Below, in pieces: positions 5,796 to 35,282 of a stretch of DNA of 64,000 bases. This DNA is from Bacillota bacterium (GTDB lineage: Bacteria > Bacillota > Clostridia > Peptostreptococcales > Anaerovoracaceae). The notes below the pieces were generated by a model. That model saw only the letters and a list, made by a program, of their open reading frames with translations. It had not been told where the DNA came from and did no database searches. The stretch is taken from positions 761 to 64,760 of the forward strand of contig JAFRIQ010000036.1 of assembly GCA_017432725.1 (NCBI GenBank), read 5' to 3'. The translations under genes and the position numbers were made by a program. How positions within the stretch are numbered: position 1 is the first letter of the stretch; each line of letters begins with the position of its first letter.

Positions 5796-6443
5796 ATGAA
5801 CGAAGGATTTTCTATTTGGCTTGGACTTATGGATTTTCTGAATCCCATCATCTACACGCTGTTCTTTGTGGCTCTTCTCAAAGGTCTTAAAGCGAAAAAT
5901 GCCGATCCCGGCATGCTCAAGGTCCTGAAGGCAGGCGCCATCATTTCCATGACTGCCGGCTACATCATCGCGTTCGGAAAGACTCTTGTGGGGCTCAACA
6001 TCATCCACTTCACGCTTCCCGTACCGCTGTTCTATGCGACCGACATAGGGTTCCTCATTTCCGGAGTGACCCTTCTTCTCATCCACAAAAAGAAGACCTA
6101 TAAGGGACTCAAGACCTGGGTCAAGATCGTCGTTCCTGTAGTATTCGTCGCGCTTTCCGTATTCGTATGCGTGTCCCAGGGAGCGAACTCCGGAGCGCAG
6201 CTCACCGCCGCCATCGGTACTTTCCTCATATACGGGACCATGATAGCCATGGCCGCCAAGGAAAAGAACCGCCTTGCGATGATACTCGCCATCGTTCCTA
6301 TCATTACCACGGCTGCTCTCATTCCCTACAGCGCAAGCGTAGACCTGACGGATCCTAAGACCCACTGGGTGATAGAGCCTACAAATATTCTCGGACAGCT
6401 GGCACTGTGGCTCAGCGCAGTACGTCTTTTCGGAAAAAAGTAG
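5796..6443 (+). CDS. Hypothetical polytopic membrane protein (215 aa)
   Basis: Strong RBS (AGGAGG) and about 6 hydrophobic segments. I recognise no family. Confidence 0.65.
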   Translation: MNEGFSIWLGLMDFLNPIIYTLFFVALLKGLKAKNADPGMLKVLKAGAIISMTAGYIIAFGKTLVGLNIIHFTLPVPLFYATDIGFLISGVTLLLIHKKKTYKGLKTWVKIVVPVVFVALSVFVCVSQGANSGAQLTAAIGTFLIYGTMIAMAAKEKNRLAMILAIVPIITTAALIPYSASVDLTDPKTHWVIEPTNILGQLALWLSAVRLFGKK

Positions 6444-6474
6444 AAATACGGCCGATAGACCGTTAAAATGCCCG

Positions 6475-6568
6475 ATAATAGTGGGCTAAATCACGGTATT
6501 TGTTTGTGGCAAAAGCTCAAAAAAACATAAATAATAAGCGTAGGAGCACAGTTTCCTGCGCTCTTTTT
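6475..6568 (+). repeat. Copy 2 of the ~93-nt intergenic element
   Basis: Core ATAATAGTGGGCTAAATCACGGTATTTGTTTGTGG (6475-6509). It is followed by ATAATA..AGCGTAGGAG/TTCCTGCGCT and a T-run (6537-6568). Confidence 0.6.
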
Positions 6569-6584
6569 AGAGAAAGGAGAACCT

Positions 6585-7751
6585 ATGAACAATAAGGAAC
6601 TGGTCGCATACAGGACTAAGCTGTTCCGTGACGCTGCGACATTCAAAAAACCCGACAGAATTCCCCATATGTCCTTCTTCGTAACGTGGAAGATACTGGG
6701 CGGAGGATATACCCTCAATGAGGGCTTAAGAAACTACGATATAATGACCAAGGTCATAAGGGAGCATCAGGAGAAGTACAATTTCGACGTGATCTTTGAA
6801 CTGGGAGTCAGAAATATCGTCCGTCTTGTGGATCACCTCGGAGGAGGGACCTACATCATAAGAGACGATGGTATCGAATACAAGGACAATGCTCTTGTAG
6901 AACTGGAAGAACTCGACGAATATACCGCTGATCCCACCAAATTCATTTGGGAAAAGGGTATGTGTAAGAAGTATCCGATGTGGGCGGACGGCACCATAAC
7001 CGTTGCGGACCTTCAGAAGTGCTTCGACGAACAGAAGGCATTCCTTGGATACTATAAAAAGATACAGAAGATACTGAAAGAAGAATACGGAGTTGCATCC
7101 TTCAATGGGCAGGTGGTGCCCTGCTATCCGGGAGTGGACTTCCTATTCAACTCCATACTGGGAATAAAGAATCTGTCTCTTGCAATGAGACGTATGCCTG
7201 AGAAGGTCGACGCCGCGGTCAAAGCGACCAACGAACTGTTCCAGGTCCCCGGTATAGCGGCTCTTAAGAGGACTAAAGGTCCGAACCCGAAAGTGTGCTA
7301 CGACTACGATATCACTCTTCTCGTACATACCATACTCAACGGAAAGCAGTTCGACCGCTGGCTGTGGCCGGATCTTAAGGACGAACTCGACATACTCAAT
7401 GAAAAGAATCTCACCACAAGACTTTTCATGGAAGGCAGCAGCAAACCCTTCTGGGATCATTTCGCCGATTACAAAAAAGGCGTCATAACCATGCACCCGG
7501 AAGCGGACGATCCCTTCGAAATGAGGAAGGCTCTTCCGAACTGCGCCATCCTGGGAGGCATGCCTGTTGAACTGCTCGGCAGAGGCACTCCTCAGGAGTG
7601 CGTAGAGAGAGCTAAAGCTCTGGTAGACGGACTTGGCGGACTGGACGGAGGTCTCGTACTGTCTCAGGACAAGATGGGCACCTTCAAGACCGATGCCGAT
7701 CCCGAGAACCTTAAAGCTGTTTCGGAGTTCATAGTGAACTACAGGGGATAG
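6585..7751 (+). CDS. Uroporphyrinogen-decarboxylase-family (URO-D / MtaA-like) protein, paralogue 1
   Basis: 388 aa with a good RBS (AAAGGAGA). The overall pattern (FVTWK.., LVHTIL, GGM..LGRGT..EC) resembles URO-D/MtaA-like TIM-barrel proteins. It is clearly paralogous to 24152-25324. Confidence 0.75.
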   Translation: MNNKELVAYRTKLFRDAATFKKPDRIPHMSFFVTWKILGGGYTLNEGLRNYDIMTKVIREHQEKYNFDVIFELGVRNIVRLVDHLGGGTYIIRDDGIEYKDNALVELEELDEYTADPTKFIWEKGMCKKYPMWADGTITVADLQKCFDEQKAFLGYYKKIQKILKEEYGVASFNGQVVPCYPGVDFLFNSILGIKNLSLAMRRMPEKVDAAVKATNELFQVPGIAALKRTKGPNPKVCYDYDITLLVHTILNGKQFDRWLWPDLKDELDILNEKNLTTRLFMEGSSKPFWDHFADYKKGVITMHPEADDPFEMRKALPNCAILGGMPVELLGRGTPQECVERAKALVDGLGGLDGGLVLSQDKMGTFKTDADPENLKAVSEFIVNYRG

Positions 7752-7762
7752 GAGGAAGCAAA

Positions 7763-7912
7763 ATGGAAGATAATAAAAACGTGATAACAAAGTATCCGGA
7801 AGGACTTGAGTATCTCAATAAACATTTAAACGTCCTGGGACTTCCTAAATTTTTAGGCGGACTGAGGAAAAGACTGATCAAAAGTCTCATTTTAACACTC
7901 GCGAGACAATAG
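7763..7912 (+). CDS. Conserved microprotein (49 aa) coupled to URO-D-like paralogue 1; absent from the ORF track
   Basis: The ATG lies 7 nt after an AGGAGG that overlaps the upstream stop (GATAGGAGGAAGCAAAATG). It encodes MEDNKNVITKYPEGLEYLNKHLNVLGLPKFLGGLRKRLIKSLILTLARQ. It shares YPEG.E.L.K.L with the microprotein at 24006-24140. Confidence 0.55.
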   Translation: MEDNKNVITKYPEGLEYLNKHLNVLGLPKFLGGLRKRLIKSLILTLARQ

Positions 7913-7967
7913 GATATTATGATATATTGTACATATGTAGGAAATTATTAAACAGGAGGAATTATTC

Positions 7968-9320
7968 ATGGCAAAAGAAAAAGTCAAAAGAGAAAGGAAG
8001 GGTACGCTGAAGGTTTCGCAGATCATTTTGTACGGCGTATTCGGAATGTTCGTGAATACGTTCTATCTGATGTATCTCACGTATAACAGGATATACTATT
8101 TGACAAACGTCCTTCAGCTCAATGAGACGCTTTCCGCAGTCGTGGCGAGCGCATCCGCGTGGATCAACGTCCTCACGATGATACTCGCAGGACCGCTGAT
8201 CGATAAAGTAAAGTTCAAGAACGGAAAATACCGCAGCTGGACCCTCATCGGAGGTATCCTCATGGTCGTCGCTCTGCCTATGCTCTATACCAACTGGCAC
8301 CTGAGCGGCACTGCAGCGGCGGTGGTATACGTAGTGATGTTTGCGATCCAGTCTATTTCATACAATACTCTGTGGGTCGCTGAAAGAGCTCTCCTCGGAC
8401 CCATGTCCAAGACATCCGAAGACGCGTCGTCCCTCGCTCTTGCATCTCAGCTCGCATCAGTTTTCGGTCTCATAGGATACAGCGTTGTCGATATGATACT
8501 CCAGAAAGTCACAAGCAACACCACTGTTATGGGATTCGTCTACGGCGCTCTCATATGCCTCGGCACGCTGGGTATGTTCAGCATGACCAAGAAATACGAT
8601 GTCAATCTTGAAGCTGCTCCGGTGGCAGACCTGGAAGGCGGCAAGGCTCCGTCCTTCTTTAAAGTCGCTTCCGGCCCGATGATCCCGTTCTGCATCGCAA
8701 TGATAGCTGCGAACTGCCATAACGGATTCTTCACAGCCATCGTAAAATTCTTCTGCGAGTACAGGCTCGGTGACGTGAGCGTGGCTTCCATGGTCGCGAC
8801 TATAACAGGCGTTACCGGACTGATCGGTTCCATAATGGCAAAGATACTTATCGCAAAGATAGGAAAGAAACCGTCGATGTACATATTCACTGCGCTCACC
8901 GCTCTTTGCTACATAGCGATATATTTCGTAAAGGCAAAACCGCTGTTCCTGGCTCTCGTGGCAGGAGTTGGTATATTCAGCGTAGTAGGATCCTTCCTGC
9001 TGGTCATCTTCTCCAACGATATAGCCGACTATGCGGAAATGACTACGGGTATCGACGGAAGAGCCATGATACAGGCGTTCTCAGGCTCCACCATCCGTAT
9101 AGGAGCGGCTCTTGCGACGACGATCGCGTCCTTCTCCCTGGCGGCTCTCGGAAACGGAGAACAGTCCGTATCCCTTCTGACATCTTTCGGACCTGCAGTA
9201 TTCTGCATACTCTCAGTGCTGGCTATGTTCTTCTACAAGCTCGATGACAGCAAGATCGAAGAATTCAGAAAAGAAAAAGCCGAAAGGATAGAGGCGGCCA
9301 ACGCGGCTAAAAACGAATAG
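7968..9320 (+). CDS. MFS transporter, glycoside-pentoside-hexuronide (GPH)-like
   Basis: 450 aa with about 12 TM segments, AGGAGG RBS and GPH-like organisation. Confidence 0.78.
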   Translation: MAKEKVKRERKGTLKVSQIILYGVFGMFVNTFYLMYLTYNRIYYLTNVLQLNETLSAVVASASAWINVLTMILAGPLIDKVKFKNGKYRSWTLIGGILMVVALPMLYTNWHLSGTAAAVVYVVMFAIQSISYNTLWVAERALLGPMSKTSEDASSLALASQLASVFGLIGYSVVDMILQKVTSNTTVMGFVYGALICLGTLGMFSMTKKYDVNLEAAPVADLEGGKAPSFFKVASGPMIPFCIAMIAANCHNGFFTAIVKFFCEYRLGDVSVASMVATITGVTGLIGSIMAKILIAKIGKKPSMYIFTALTALCYIAIYFVKAKPLFLALVAGVGIFSVVGSFLLVIFSNDIADYAEMTTGIDGRAMIQAFSGSTIRIGAALATTIASFSLAALGNGEQSVSLLTSFGPAVFCILSVLAMFFYKLDDSKIEEFRKEKAERIEAANAAKNE

Positions 9321-9373
9321 GGTATTCAGACGTAGAAATATGATCTTCCAAAGATCATCGCGATACCTCTTTA

Positions 9374-30956: not shown

Positions 30957-31556
30957 ATGATTTGCAGGAATTGCGGAAAGAACATACCGGCAGAGAGCGA
31001 ACTCTGCCCTGAATGCGGAGCAAAGGTAAAAAAGATCAGCGTATTCGAAACGCCTGCCTCTTCGTCTTCAGAGGCAAAACAAAGCAGCGTGTTCACTACG
31101 CCCAAGGATTTCAATAAAGGGAATAAGAAAAAGAGCGGTTGCCTCATAGCGGTCGTTATTCTTGTTATCGCCATCATAGTCGCTGCCGCTAGCATCTTTA
31201 TAGTCGCGAGAAAAAGAATAAAACAGCAGCAGGAGTACGTGCACCAGATGGAGGAAATGCTTCAGGACGAAGATCTTGATATGGATGAGATCTGGGGCCT
31301 CATGGAAGATATACAGGAGCACTTCCCACAGAGCGAAGAAAGCGAAGAGTACAAAGAGCTTTACGATAAGATCCAGGAATATGTGAAGAAGCATATGCAG
31401 GAGCAGGATATTCAGGTCCCTGAAGAATATAACGAATTCTTCGATATAATGAACGGGCTCGGCGAAGGCGAACATGACGGCGACGAGATGTACCAGGAAT
31501 TCATGGAGATGTTCGATCTCATCGTCCAGCAGCAGACGGAGAAGAAATCCGACTAA
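30957..31556 (+). CDS. Zinc-ribbon membrane protein with an acidic C-terminal tail
   Basis: MICRNCGKNIPAESELCPECGAKV (CxxC..CxxC), one TM segment (LIAVVILVIAIIVAAASIFIV) and a Glu/Asp-rich C-terminus. Its stop overlaps the next start (TAATG). Confidence 0.62.
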   Translation: MICRNCGKNIPAESELCPECGAKVKKISVFETPASSSSEAKQSSVFTTPKDFNKGNKKKSGCLIAVVILVIAIIVAAASIFIVARKRIKQQQEYVHQMEEMLQDEDLDMDEIWGLMEDIQEHFPQSEESEEYKELYDKIQEYVKKHMQEQDIQVPEEYNEFFDIMNGLGEGEHDGDEMYQEFMEMFDLIVQQQTEKKSD

Positions 31557-34108
31557 TGAGCTTGAGCCTTCCGCAAAAGAATATATGTATAGGAGTACTT
31601 GCCCACGTTGACGCGGGCAAGACTACTTTGAGCGAAGCGATCCTTTACAAGACCGGTCAGATCAAAACGCCCGGCCGTGTAGACAACGGGAACGCTTTTC
31701 TTGATACGGAAAGAATAGAAAAGAAACGCGGCATAACGGTATTTTCGAAGCAGGCTATTTTCCCGCTGGGAGACAAGACCGTTTTTCTTCAGGATACTCC
31801 CGGCCATGTGGATTTCTCAGCGGAGATGGAAAGGACTCTCAGCGTTCTGGATTACGCTGTTCTCGTGATCTCTGCTCCCGACGGGATACAGTCCCACACG
31901 GAGCTTCTTCTGGAACTGCTCGAAAAGCATTCCATCCCTACTTTCGTATTCATCAATAAGACCGACCTCGAGTATGAGGAGTTCAGAATGCCCGAGACCT
32001 GGGTGGATCTTTCATGCCCCGATCCTGAGGGCATAGCCCTTTGCAGCGAATATGCTATGGACGAGTACGAAAGAACGGGGTCAGTATCGGATATTACGGT
32101 AAAAAGACTTGTAAGAGAGCGGAAGCTCATGCCGGTATTCAGAGGCTCGGCCTTAAGGCTCGAGGGCATAGACGCCTTCCTTGAAGGACTCGACAGATAC
32201 ACCGAAGCCGCAGCTCATCCGGAAGAATTCGGCGCAAGATGCTTCAAGATAACAAGAGACGAAAAGGAAAACAGGCTTTCATGGCTCAAGATAACGGGCG
32301 GTTCTCTCAAACTGAGGGAAACCGTAGGCGATGAGAAGATAACGGGCATCAGGCTTTATTCGGGCGGAAAGTTCGATGCAGCTGAGGCAGTTTATCCGGG
32401 AAGCGTATGCGCAGTACTGGGCCTCGAAAACAGTTTTGCGGGGCAGGGCCTCGGGTTTGAGGAAGATCAGATAGAGACCAGTCTCGAGCCGGTCCTCACA
32501 TACAGGATAAAGGTGCTGGACGGCACCGACGATATAGAAGCGCTCAGAAAACTGTCCATACTGGCAGAGGAGGATCCCCTTCTCAAAATAGAGTGGGATG
32601 AAAACTTAAGAGAGATACACGCAAGGCTCATGGGCAGCGTTCAGATAGAGGTCCTGAGCCAGATCATCTCCGACAGATTGGGCATGGAAGTATCCATAGA
32701 AGAGGGAAAGGTCGTATACAAGGAGACCATAGGAAACAGCGTGGAAGGCGTCGGTCATTTCGAGCCTCTCAGGCATTATGCCGAAGTACACCTTCTCATG
32801 GAGCCTCTTTCCCCGGGTTCGGGCATAGTGCTCGAGACTGCGTGCAGCGAAGACCTTCTGGACAGGAACTGGCAGAGGCTGATACTTTACAATCTTGCGG
32901 AGTACAGGCATGTAGGGGTACTTACGGGATCCCCTCTTACGGACGTCAAAATGACGCTTATCGCCGGGAGGGCGCACCTTAAGCACACTGAAGGTGGAGA
33001 TTTCAGGCAGGCATCCTTAAGAGCGGTCAGACAGGGTCTCATGAAAGCGGAGAACGTGCTCCTCGAACCCTTTTACAGATTCCGCATTGAGATACCCTCC
33101 GAACAGATCGGAAGGCTCATTAGCGATCTGAAAGCCATGGGAGCCGATTTCGAAGCACCGGAGCAGGGGCCCGAGAGGACGGTTCTTTCAGGTATAGGAC
33201 CTGTGTCTGAACTTCAGAATTATCAGACCCAGCTTCTTTCGTATACAAGGGGGAAAGGGAAACTCTCCTGCAGATACGAGGGATATTTCCCGTGCCATGA
33301 TACGGAAAAGGTCATCGGGAATATAGGCTACGATCCCGACAGAGATACGGACAATCCTTCTTCGAGCGTTTTCTGTTCCCACGGAAGCGGTGTAAACGTA
33401 AGATGGGACAGCGTGGAAGAGTTCGAACACATAGACAGCGGACTGTCCTTTGGCGGCGAGGCTCCGGCGGCTGCGGATCCAAAACTCCGGCCTGGCAATT
33501 TCGATTTCGATGAGAAAGAGCTTGAGGAGATAATGGAAAGGGAATTCGGGAAGATAAAAAGGCCCAGGTATTCCACGGTCGTATATGAACCTCTTTCCGG
33601 TTACAAAGCCAAGATCAAAGATGCGAAAAAAGAATATCTCGTAGTGGACGGGTACAATATAGTCTTTGCGTGGGACAGCCTGAAAAAACTGGCGGCGGAC
33701 GATATTTCCGCAGCAAGGGAGAGCCTTATGGACATCCTTGCGGAATACAGGTCCGTCAAAGGATGCGAGATGGTCATAGTCTTCGACGGCTACAAACTTA
33801 AAGGAAACGAAGGGAGCCGCTTCGACCACAAAGGTATAAACATAGTCTACACGAAAGAAGGCCAGAGCGCCGACGCGTATATCGAAAGTCTGGTAAAAGA
33901 CCTGGGGCACAGTTACAGCATTTCCGTAGCGACATCAGATGCCCTGGTGCAGCTCTCCGCTCTCAGACAGGGTACCAGAAGGATCTCGGCAAGGGAACTG
34001 GAGATGGACGTAAAGGCGGAAAAGACGAGGATAGAGGAGATCATTGCAGGCTATTCTACAGGAAGCAGCAAACTGGGAGAAAGAGCGAAGATCACGAGTA
34101 TTCATTAG
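31556..34108 (+). CDS. TetM/EF-G-like translational GTPase fused to a C-terminal YacP/Rae1-like NYN ribonuclease domain
   Basis: The N-terminal ~620 aa carry IGVLAHVDAGKTTL, DTPGH and NKTD, and are collinear with domains II-V of TetM-type proteins. The C-terminal ~160 aa (from nt ~33632) read EYLVVDGYNIVFAW..VIVFDGYK..VYTKEGQSADAYIE..VATSD.., closely resembling B. subtilis YacP. Confidence 0.85.
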   Translation: MSLSLPQKNICIGVLAHVDAGKTTLSEAILYKTGQIKTPGRVDNGNAFLDTERIEKKRGITVFSKQAIFPLGDKTVFLQDTPGHVDFSAEMERTLSVLDYAVLVISAPDGIQSHTELLLELLEKHSIPTFVFINKTDLEYEEFRMPETWVDLSCPDPEGIALCSEYAMDEYERTGSVSDITVKRLVRERKLMPVFRGSALRLEGIDAFLEGLDRYTEAAAHPEEFGARCFKITRDEKENRLSWLKITGGSLKLRETVGDEKITGIRLYSGGKFDAAEAVYPGSVCAVLGLENSFAGQGLGFEEDQIETSLEPVLTYRIKVLDGTDDIEALRKLSILAEEDPLLKIEWDENLREIHARLMGSVQIEVLSQIISDRLGMEVSIEEGKVVYKETIGNSVEGVGHFEPLRHYAEVHLLMEPLSPGSGIVLETACSEDLLDRNWQRLILYNLAEYRHVGVLTGSPLTDVKMTLIAGRAHLKHTEGGDFRQASLRAVRQGLMKAENVLLEPFYRFRIEIPSEQIGRLISDLKAMGADFEAPEQGPERTVLSGIGPVSELQNYQTQLLSYTRGKGKLSCRYEGYFPCHDTEKVIGNIGYDPDRDTDNPSSSVFCSHGSGVNVRWDSVEEFEHIDSGLSFGGEAPAAADPKLRPGNFDFDEKELEEIMEREFGKIKRPRYSTVVYEPLSGYKAKIKDAKKEYLVVDGYNIVFAWDSLKKLAADDISAARESLMDILAEYRSVKGCEMVIVFDGYKLKGNEGSRFDHKGINIVYTKEGQSADAYIESLVKDLGHSYSISVATSDALVQLSALRQGTRRISARELEMDVKAEKTRIEEIIAGYSTGSSKLGERAKITSIH

Positions 34109-34206
34109 AGGAAACTACAACAAAGTGATGGAAAAATTTTGTTGCTTTTATGCCATTATATGATAAACTAAACAAGGTTAAGAAAAGTAATATCTGGGAG
34201 GAATCA

Positions 34207-34596
34207 ATGAAGAAGTTATCAGTAAAAAAAGGAATCGAATGCCAGGCATGTCTTGCATGCGTAAACGTCTGTTCTGCAACATACTACAAGGAAGAGAATC
34301 CCTTCAAGTCCTGTATTCAGATAGTTATGGGAAAGGACGGATCTCCTAAGCCTAACGTCTGCATTCAGTGCGGCAAGTGCGCAAAGGCATGTGAACATGA
34401 TGCTATCAAACAGCTCCCCAACGGAGTATATACAGTTGACAAGAAAAAGTGTGTCAAGTGCGGCAAGTGCGTAGAAGCATGCCCCTTCGGCGTCATGGTA
34501 CTCGATGAACAGGCAGCGGCTGCGAGCAAGTGCATAGCTTGCGCAAAGTGCGTAAAGGCCTGCCCAATGGAACTTCTCGAGATCGTAGAAAAGTGA
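34207..34596 (+). CDS. 4Fe-4S ferredoxin-type protein (multiple clusters)
   Basis: Repeated CxxCxxCxxxCP-type motifs (CIQCGKCAKACE, CVKCGKCVEACP, CIACAKCVKACP). GGGAGGA RBS before the internal ATG. Confidence 0.8.
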   Translation: MKKLSVKKGIECQACLACVNVCSATYYKEENPFKSCIQIVMGKDGSPKPNVCIQCGKCAKACEHDAIKQLPNGVYTVDKKKCVKCGKCVEACPFGVMVLDEQAAAASKCIACAKCVKACPMELLEIVEK

Positions 34597-34617: not shown

Positions 34618-34643
34618 ACCGGCCTTTTCAGGCCGGTTTTTTA
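34618..34643 (+). terminator. Intrinsic terminator
   Basis: ACCGGCC-TTTTCA-GGCCGGT followed by TTTTTT. Confidence 0.72.
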
Positions 34644-34677: not shown

Positions 34678-34706
34678 TTGACATGTAAAAATATGGAAGA
34701 TATAAT
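34678..34706 (+). promoter_or_regulatory. Putative promoter of the Tad-like operon
   Basis: TTGACA, 17-nt spacer, TATAAT (consensus hexamers), about 20 nt upstream of the AAAGGAG RBS. Confidence 0.55.
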
Positions 34707-34727: not shown

Positions 34728-35282
34728 ATGAAACTGAAAAGCATCATAGGTATCCTGCTCATACTTCTCAGCATTGCAGGTATGTATTTCTGGGAGACAA
34801 AATACAGGAAAGAAATGATATTCACAAAGGTCCTTGCTGCGGCTGCGGACATACATGAGGGGGATATAGCGACGGAAGACAGTTTCAAGGAAATATCGGT
34901 ATCTCCTGAAAGCCTTGTCTCCGGATATCTGACCTCAGAGGATAAGGATATGCTTTTGGGCAAGGAATGCGTTTTTCCCATAAAGGAAAATGGGCAGATT
35001 TTTTACGGAAGTTTTGAGGACGCAAAGACAAAGGAAGACGACGGAATGTACGACCTTGTGCTGCCGGGTGAATGGATCTATCTGAAAGACCTGGGTCTTG
35101 ATAAGGGCGTTCCCGCGCTCATCTATTACGTTCCGTCCGGGGAATATATCGGGAGATATGAAGTAAGGTCTGTCAAGGCGGGGGAATACGTGGAGATCCG
35201 GTGTCCTCTTGACGATTATCTTTCCATGGTATCGTCCGCTTCAGGCGGAAGCTGCAGTCTGCTTCTTATCTCCGATAAATGA
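34728..35282 (+). CDS. CpaB/RcpC-like SAF-domain protein with an N-terminal TM anchor
   Basis: An N-terminal TM segment is followed by VLAAAADIHEGDIATEDSF.., the SAF-domain pattern seen in Flp pilus assembly protein CpaB. It is the first gene of a 5-gene overlapping operon. Confidence 0.5.
   Translation: MKLKSIIGILLILLSIAGMYFWETKYRKEMIFTKVLAAAADIHEGDIATEDSFKEISVSPESLVSGYLTSEDKDMLLGKECVFPIKENGQIFYGSFEDAKTKEDDGMYDLVLPGEWIYLKDLGLDKGVPALIYYVPSGEYIGRYEVRSVKAGEYVEIRCPLDDYLSMVSSASGGSCSLLLISDK

Follow-up and report, generated by a model that had tools for sequence, protein, structure and literature searches.

Fusions of a TetM-like translational GTPase with a nuclease domain of the NYN_YacP family have been reported from Clostridia by Atkinson 2015 (PMC4342817) and by Matelska et al. 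2017 (PMC5499597). These papers give the fusion one or two sentences each, cover ten species and describe its role as unclear, and the former proposed that it represents a novel resistance mechanism. The architecture is thus already known, and its function is uncharacterised. The subject of this study is a fusion gene of this kind located in a 64,000-nucleotide stretch of DNA, hereafter the window, of a Bacillota bacterium of the family Anaerovoracaceae (GenBank assembly GCA_017432725.1, contig JAFRIQ010000036.1, positions 761 to 64,760 of the forward strand). Since its product of 850 amino acids (aa) shares both the architecture and the taxonomic group of the published clostridial family, it is regarded as a member of that family; its sequence is identical to that of a fusion already present in NCBI, where it carries the label 'TetM/TetW/TetO/TetS family'.

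The closest described relative of the nuclease half is YacP of Bacillus subtilis, also named Rae1 (structures 5MQ8 and 5MQ9). Both Rae1 and the fusion show the NYN_YacP fold and carry four catalytic Asp residues together with the GYN motif. Rae1, with about 170 aa, stands alone and associates with the ribosome only transiently, whereas the fusion attaches the domain permanently to a GTPase predicted to occupy the factor-binding site. All activity characterised for YacP/Rae1 is directed at mRNA and depends on translation (PMC10351889, PMC12407103, PMC13622287). In 2025-2026 Rae1 was recast as a collision- or stall-associated mRNA nuclease of Gram-positive bacteria: Deves et al. 2025, from the same group that had proposed cleavage in the ribosomal A site, explicitly withdraw this docking-based model, and according to Tetreault et al. 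2026 Rae1 generates trans-translation substrates after collisions (PMC13622287). A structure of ribosome-bound Rae1 is lacking, and its binding is transient (PMC13622287). A functional analogy exists with SmrB/Cue2, which carry an SMR domain, and with MutS2/RqcU, which combines an ATPase with SMR, as in these systems a nuclease is brought to stalled or collided ribosomes (PMC13622287). MutS2, like the fusion, unites an NTPase and a nuclease in one polypeptide (PMC13622287). However, the folds are unrelated (SMR versus NYN, and MutS-type ATPase versus translational GTPase), and SmrB/Cue2 and MutS2 bind the disome interface, while the fusion is predicted to bind at the factor-binding site. On the GTPase side, the closest characterised family by sequence is TetM/TetO, which has the same five-domain body and the same G motifs.

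Analysis of the window revealed that the open reading frame (ORF) runs without interruption and, judged from its sequence, encodes an EF-G/Tet-like translational GTPase with a body of five domains, joined to a YacP/Rae1 NYN nuclease whose catalytic residues are intact (Table 1). All five domains of the EF-G/EF2 branch (G, II, III, IV and V) are matched by Pfam: GTP_EFTU with an E-value of 1.6e-44 and EFG_C with 3.7e-17, together with EFG_IV and with weak matches to EF-G_D2 and EFG_III. The C-terminal part matches NYN_YacP (PF05991) with an E-value of 5.8e-43 and 147.2 bits, against a gathering threshold of 24.6. The G1 (AHVDAGKT, residues 16-23), G3 (DTPGH, 80-84) and G4 (NKTD, 134-137) motifs are complete, and Thr61 of switch I and a G5 motif (GSAL) are also present. 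An AlphaFold2 model of the fusion, built with 33 relatives as input, has a mean predicted local distance difference test score (pLDDT) of 79 and displays the EF-G fold; its top PDB matches in Foldseek are EF-G structures (E-values of 1e-49 to 1e-45, template modelling scores of at most 0.75 relative to the target). The C-terminal 172 aa of the protein match the B. subtilis YacP/Rae1 structures with an E-value of 1.7e-24. These results bear out an initial annotation, made from the sequence alone, that had described a single GTPase-nuclease ORF with G1, G3 and G4 motifs and had left the assignment of each half to profile searches. That annotation had also called the C-terminal domain very close to YacP; the family membership holds, but identity to B. 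subtilis YacP/Rae1 is 40% over 137 aa.

A frameshift or stop codon splitting the ORF had been considered from the outset, and two adjacent genes could in principle have been merged by an error of sequencing or assembly. An identical 850-aa protein is, however, encoded on contigs of three different samples, and hundreds of full-length fused homologues exist, including ones in complete genomes. A frameshift or an assembly error therefore did not create the fusion, and this explanation is excluded for all practical purposes.

Conservation of the active sites was examined in 151 sequences, namely the protein under study and the 150 best representatives of clusters at 50% identity. In the GTPase, Lys22, Thr61, Asp80, Lys135 and Asp137 are shared by all 151 sequences, and 150 have the catalytic His84; the G5 motif is less fixed, with Ser198 in 135, Ala199 in 141 and Leu200 in 143. 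The acidic residues of the NYN domain, whose presence the initial annotation had left to be checked, are all in place: Asp698, Asp744, Asp773 and Asp795 align with D7, D53, D81 and D104 of Rae1 and are found in 147-149 of the 151 sequences, the rest being gaps or fragments. Asp698 begins the sequence D-G-Y-N, and a GYN motif after the first Asp defines NYN_YacP (PMC5499597). Two of the aligned Rae1 residues are those changed in the D7N D81N variant, used in vivo as catalytically dead Rae1 (PMC10351889). This pattern of conservation indicates that both predicted catalytic activities are under selection across the 151 relatives.

The most conserved stretch of the fusion protein is the tip of domain IV, which in EF-G/TetM is the portion inserted into the A site; it is made up of the loops VEGVGHFEPLRHYAEVH and GRAHLKHTEGGDFRQA. 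The pattern GH[FY]EPL[RK]HY of the tip is nearly invariant: Gly400, His401, Glu403, Pro404 and Leu405 are found in every sequence of the set, and Asp482 in all but one. Such invariance is as expected if the tip contacts universal features of rRNA, tRNA or mRNA. Some homologues show local peculiarities. In P0052 (898 aa) and P0054 (913 aa) the NYN domain is interrupted, after its first strand-helix unit and before the next helix, by about 40-50 aa of low-complexity, Gly/Pro-rich sequence. In P0092 the domain IV segment TDVKITLLAGRAHLKHTEG is duplicated exactly within the protein, which is probably an assembly artefact.

The region between domain V and the nuclease spans 112 aa (residues 583-694). 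The linker of about 70 aa proposed in the initial annotation proved too short, and most of the region is conserved sequence, part of which also occurs in unfused GTPases of Lactobacillaceae. In the family alignment, residues of about 583-645 share the motif PCH...YDP.RD..N..DSVFCSHGAG..VKW....MH, and this segment has no match to any Pfam family. Its pLDDT is 64-84 in the full model and 54 when it is folded alone, so it probably acts as an extension packed on the GTPase body; the poor fold in isolation gives no support to an autonomous domain. An obligate zinc site formed by Cys580, Cys607, His609 and His625 was considered and rejected, as all four residues occur together in 84 of the 151 sequences and His609 is often replaced by Asn, Gln, Lys or Gly. 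The extension is followed by a helix (residues 651-664, DEKELEEIMEREFG) that is conserved among fused proteins and absent from the unfused lineage. The sole part of the region predicted to be disordered is that of residues ~664-690, where pLDDT falls below 50 and conservation is poor.

The best curated match of the GTPase half is the tetracycline protection model tet_protect (NF012153), and TetO and TetM are the closest solved structures by sequence. Together with the label in NCBI and the proposal of Atkinson 2015 (PMC4342817), this would favour a protein that protects the ribosome against tetracycline or another antibiotic, with an added RNase activity. Nevertheless, the score of 381.6 bits is about half of the cut-off of 775, the score for NF033148 is 268 against a cut-off of 1100, and identity to TetO is only 35% overall and 30% in domains II-V. 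In TetM, Pro509 occupies the tetracycline site against C1054 (PMC8161019). The residues Y506-Y507-S508-P509-V510 of TetM align with A473-H474-L475-K476-H477 of the fusion, so that the whole YYSPV sequence, in loop III of domain IV, is replaced by AHLKH; Lys476, at the position of Pro509, is Lys in 139 of the 151 sequences. The G' insert is shortened, with residues 137-206 of TetO (70 aa) aligning to only 42 aa of the fusion. The fusion further differs from TetM/TetO in having a different C-terminal extension and in being a widespread chromosomal gene rather than one of mobile elements, with two fused copies among 72,556 plasmid records; finally, the overlap of its start with the upstream gene leaves no room for a leader of the tet(M) style. 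From these comparisons it is concluded that the GTPase half is not a member of the tetracycline-protection family. The assignment of the body to the TetM/TetO type in the initial annotation is accordingly not upheld, and a role in antibiotic protection is considered very improbable.

A search of plasmid records revealed that the same GTPase lineage exists without the nuclease. The protein LSL_RS10690 (644 aa) of the megaplasmid pMP118 of Ligilactobacillus salivarius shows 48% identity over residues 8-627 of the fusion, has the same GHFEPLRHY tip loop and C-terminal extension, and continues for just six residues beyond the latter. In Lactobacillaceae, copies of 640-660 aa that lack PF05991 are widespread on chromosomes, including those of Companilactobacillus, Levilactobacillus, Paucilactobacillus, Pediococcus, Limosilactobacillus and Lactiplantibacillus; the unfused proteins end 6-14 residues past the extension and lack the helix, the tether and the NYN domain. 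The second tip loop also differs, being GRASNVHSVGGDF in the unfused Lactobacillaceae GTPase and GRAHLKHTEGGDF in the fusion. Against tet_protect the unfused form scores 420 bits (cut-off 775). Since both fused and unfused proteins reach about half of this cut-off, and given the low identity to TetO, they constitute a distinct, unnamed subfamily of translational GTPases. The existence of the lineage in unfused form suggests that the GTPase body is an autonomous ribosome factor to which a nuclease was added, and from the comparison of the sequences it was the Clostridia that apparently added the helix, the tether and the Rae1 domain to this GTPase subfamily. The unfused lineage has no curated model, and its annotations vary between EF-G, TetM and 'translation factor GTPase family protein'. 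On pMP118, the unfused gene adjoins, in divergent orientation, a paralogue of rpsN (S14) and a gene for a 'putative metal homeostasis protein'.

The fused form is widespread in gut Clostridia, being chromosomal and present in hundreds of genomes. Among proteins clustered at 90%, the 120 best matches, with identity down to 51%, have the same architecture throughout; most are 838-913 aa long and one is a 690-aa fragment. Almost all of the 150 representatives at 50% identity are 830-1150 aa long and nearly all are fused, and 149 of the 151 sequences have an aligned NYN domain. Signature peptides of the family were detected in at least 597 stretches in a scan of one genome per species. The best 80 of these stretches, on which all neighbourhood counts below are based, all contain the fused form; they come from Oscillospiraceae, Ruminococcaceae, Lachnospiraceae (Blautia, Dorea, Mediterraneibacter, Marvinbryantia and Anaerobutyricum), Flavonifractor, Anaerotruncus, Herbinix and others. 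The two fused copies among the plasmid records belong to very large records, 252 and 518 kilobases long, that are non-mobilisable. The fusion gene is best explained as coding for a ribosome factor of gut Clostridia that is chromosomal and vertically inherited. A second copy of NYN_YacP was found neither within the window nor in the fetched flanks of the 80 loci, and large chromosome-like PLSDB records of Monoglobus and Agathobacter, which are partial genomes, show only the fused copy. Stand-alone YacP-like NYN domains, 41-43% identical to the NYN domain of the fusion, are encoded on two contigs of a phage collection, MT835563.1 (7596-8015) and MT835514.1 (17358-17762); these are unannotated entries named 'Bacteriophage sp.' from human faeces, and represent either phage-borne Rae1 or misclassified bacterial contigs.

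The reading favoured here, to which we give about an even chance of being correct, is that the fusion is a Rae1-type mRNA nuclease that its GTPase docks on stalled or collided ribosomes. We infer that the active EF-G-like GTPase body would first dock at the ribosomal factor-binding site, where the family-specific tip of domain IV, rich in His, Lys and Arg, would probe the A site of the decoding centre and could sense the state of the ribosome. In factors of the EF-G/TetM type, domain IV fills the A site, and therefore the tethered NYN domain would have to act elsewhere. The initial annotation had started from cleavage of mRNA in the A site, a premise made outdated both by the withdrawal of that model and by the occupation of the site by domain IV itself. 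Instead, the conserved helix and a tether of about 27 aa may let the NYN domain cut mRNA outside the A site. Most simply, the cut would fall at the mRNA entry side of the factor-bearing ribosome; in a collided pair this side would look onto the tail of the stalled leader, the known place of cleavage by Rae1. The cut could then feed the ribosome into rescue, by trans-translation or by ribosome quality control, and hydrolysis of GTP would free the factor from the ribosome.

The genes adjoining the fusion offer a modest but independent pointer towards ribosome rescue. A gene for a YlmH_RBD protein (PF17774, E-value 8e-13) of about 248 aa lies directly downstream of the fusion in 12 of the 80 loci, often overlapping it by stop and start codons, and this is the largest cluster of neighbours. 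In bacterial ribosome quality control, YlmH is cited as a processivity factor (PMC13622287). The 12 fusions linked to it share 50-80% mutual identity and have differing outer flanks; the window itself contains no ylmH.

Several observations weigh against a role at stalled or collided ribosomes. The link with YlmH is found in 15% of the sampled genomes and may reflect one subclade, while no neighbour is conserved family-wide among the 80 loci. In three genomes of Lactobacillaceae the unfused GTPase genes do not adjoin yacP, and a full-text literature search found no experimental study of any member of the fusion family. The proposed geometry is conjecture. To our knowledge, Rae1 of B. subtilis acts without such a GTPase partner, and a GTPase is thus not needed for Rae1 in general.

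Another possibility is that the fusion serves in the processing of rRNA or tRNA, or in the assembly or turnover of ribosomes, the GTPase body docking on a subunit or on the 70S ribosome and the NYN domain trimming or cleaving rRNA, either for maturation or to decommission ribosomes under stress. YacP was at first predicted to function in rRNA/tRNA maturation, on the basis of its operon with mrnC and rlmB (PMC5499597), and the modelled tether would hold the nuclease within reach of the rRNA near the factor site. This is at odds with the characterised activity of YacP/Rae1, all of it on mRNA and dependent on translation, and with the absence of recurring genes for rRNA processing or ribosome assembly beside the fusion among the 80 loci; it is considered rather unlikely.

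A-site nucleases such as RelE are toxins, and a growth-arrest, toxin-like or anti-phage effector that cleaves mRNA in bulk when triggered is a further conceivable role. Activity of Rae1 against the mRNA of invaders has also been raised as a speculation (PMC13622287). However, PADLOC detected no defence system, no antitoxin-like or defence neighbour is conserved among the 80 loci, the genomic context is of the housekeeping kind, and entire families inherit the gene, which makes such an effector improbable. Of the roles listed in the initial annotation, rescue of stalled ribosomes thus stands as the most plausible one, whereas growth arrest is largely set aside.

The preferred reading, of a nuclease docked on stalled or collided ribosomes, can be extended to the unfused lineage. 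The 'GHFEPLRHY' GTPases as a whole might be hitherto unrecognised ribosome-state sensors dedicated to Rae1-type nucleases, the two being fused in Clostridia and separate in Lactobacillaceae in the manner of a Rosetta stone, and together with these nucleases might define a bacterial, GTP-dependent pathway of no-go decay or collision rescue. This extension is tentative and, in our estimate, unlikely as it stands.

The surroundings of the gene are ordinary chromosomal DNA, with rplT, prfC and nrdR at one end of the window and tig, clpP, clpX and lon at the other. The fusion is apparently the penultimate gene of a mixed operon with the order Cu-oxidase_4/YlmD-like protein, major facilitator superfamily transporter, metallophosphoesterase, asparaginase, Zn-ribbon protein, fusion and ferredoxin. 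The ferredoxin gene is kept only in close relatives and occurs in two of the 80 more distant loci. The Zn-ribbon gene overlaps the fusion by the sequence TAATG (TAA at 31554-31556, ATG at 31556-31558), from which the initial annotation had proposed a translationally coupled, functional pair. The overlap is real, but the pairing is rejected: the Zn-ribbon gene adjoins the fusion in none of the 80 other genomes and is missing from syntenic close relatives. In a relative with 80% identity and otherwise the same synteny, its slot is taken by a gene for an unrelated 187-aa protein with a weak HD match (L089: 4429-4992); in one with 78% identity (L090) the slot is empty and the asparaginase gene overlaps the start of the fusion; and in one with 66% identity a P-II-like gene lies upstream of the fusion. 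Overlap of stop and start codons occurs with whichever gene precedes the fusion, and the TAATG overlap reflects compact packing of the operon and no functional pair. The operon is otherwise conserved, with a small hotspot of gene turnover in the slot that separates the asparaginase gene from the fusion.

Table 1. Coordinates of the fusion gene and its parts, of adjoining features and of loci used for comparison; positions are those of the window unless a record or locus is named
Feature	Coordinates	Strand	Basis or remarks
Whole ORF, 850 aa: EF-G/Tet-like translational GTPase and YacP/Rae1 NYN nuclease (predicted)	31556..34108	+	Pfam; three independent assemblies
G domain (residues 9-217), shortened G' insert	31580..32206	+	Pfam GTP_EFTU
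G1 AHVDAGKT	31601-31624	+	Motif position
G3 DTPGH with catalytic His84	31793-31807	+	Motif position
G4 NKTD	31955-31966	+	Motif position
Domains II (residues 228-296) and III (311-382)	32237..32701	+	Weak Pfam matches; AlphaFold2/Foldseek EF-G fold
Domain IV (residues 384-499)	32705..33052	+	Pfam EFG_IV
Domain IV tip loop VEGVGHFEPLRHYAEVH	32741-32791	+	Family-specific, nearly invariant
Domain IV tip loop GRAHLKHTEGGDFRQA	32966-33013	+	Family-specific, nearly invariant
Domain V (residues 501-582)	33056..33301	+	Pfam EFG_C, 3.7e-17
Conserved C-terminal extension of the GTPase body (residues 583-645)	33302..33490	+	Invariant columns in family alignment
Fusion-specific conserved helix (residues about 651-665), DEKELEEIMEREFG	33506..33550	+	Conservation, AlphaFold2; not in unfused lineage
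Predicted disordered tether (residues about 666-690)	33551..33625	+	pLDDT <50, poorly conserved
NYN_YacP (Rae1-type) endoribonuclease domain (residues 695-832), GYN 699-701	33638..34051	+	Pfam; PDB 5MQ8/5MQ9
Zn-ribbon membrane protein with acidic tail, upstream	30957..31556	+	1-nucleotide overlap with fusion start
4Fe-4S ferredoxin gene, downstream	34150-34596	+	Pfam
Terminator-like hairpin, probable operon end	34618-34637	+	Sequence
Unfused GTPase of L. salivarius pMP118	NC_007930.1 226540-228474 (locus L084: 5983-7917)		644 aa
Loci with a YlmH gene directly downstream of the fusion: L006, L007, L009, L010, L014, L018, L019, L023, L025, L028, L043, L079
Example locus L019	YlmH_RBD gene 8591-9337; fusion 5989-8601		YlmH_RBD gene directly after fusion

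Further features of the window lie outside this operon. A second GTPase of the EF2 family, prfC/RF3, recognised by eye from its N-terminal sequence, is encoded at 491-2092 on the - strand beside rplT and nrdR, 29 kilobases upstream of the fusion. Downstream of the fusion operon, a sigma-70-like promoter of perfect consensus (TTGACA-17-TATAAT, 34678-34706) precedes a cluster of five genes extending to 38931. The first encodes a SAF-domain protein (34728-35282), and the other four encode products of 246, 453, 308 and 214 aa for which Pfam gives no significant match. Judged by eye, the 453-aa product resembles a CpaF/TadA-type secretion ATPase in degenerate form, with GAVRTAKT as a Walker A-like sequence. 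The cluster keeps its synteny in relatives with as little as 66% identity and may be a divergent Tad/Flp-like pilus locus.

Compared with the earlier reports of the fusion, the present analysis adds the scale of the family, which reaches hundreds of species, the invariance of both active sites, the non-Tet loops of domain IV, the conserved extension and helix, the unfused sister lineage and the link with YlmH. Members of the family are routinely mislabelled as tetracycline-resistance genes, which inflates resistome counts. The fusion also offers an experimental handle on Rae1, as a GTPase can be locked on the ribosome by non-hydrolysable GTP, which would make cryo-electron microscopy of the nuclease on its substrate feasible; if the GHFEPLRHY lineage does consist of sensors for Rae1-type nucleases, the fused form would be a natural tool for trapping such a nuclease on the ribosome for structures, and the unfused Lactobacillaceae lineage allows the Rosetta-stone hypothesis to be tested. 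In evolutionary terms, the fusion hints that nucleases of the Rae1 type work jointly with the factor-binding site of the ribosome; the family is present in many dominant gut commensals, among them Oscillospiraceae, Ruminococcus, Blautia, Dorea, Agathobacter and Flavonifractor.

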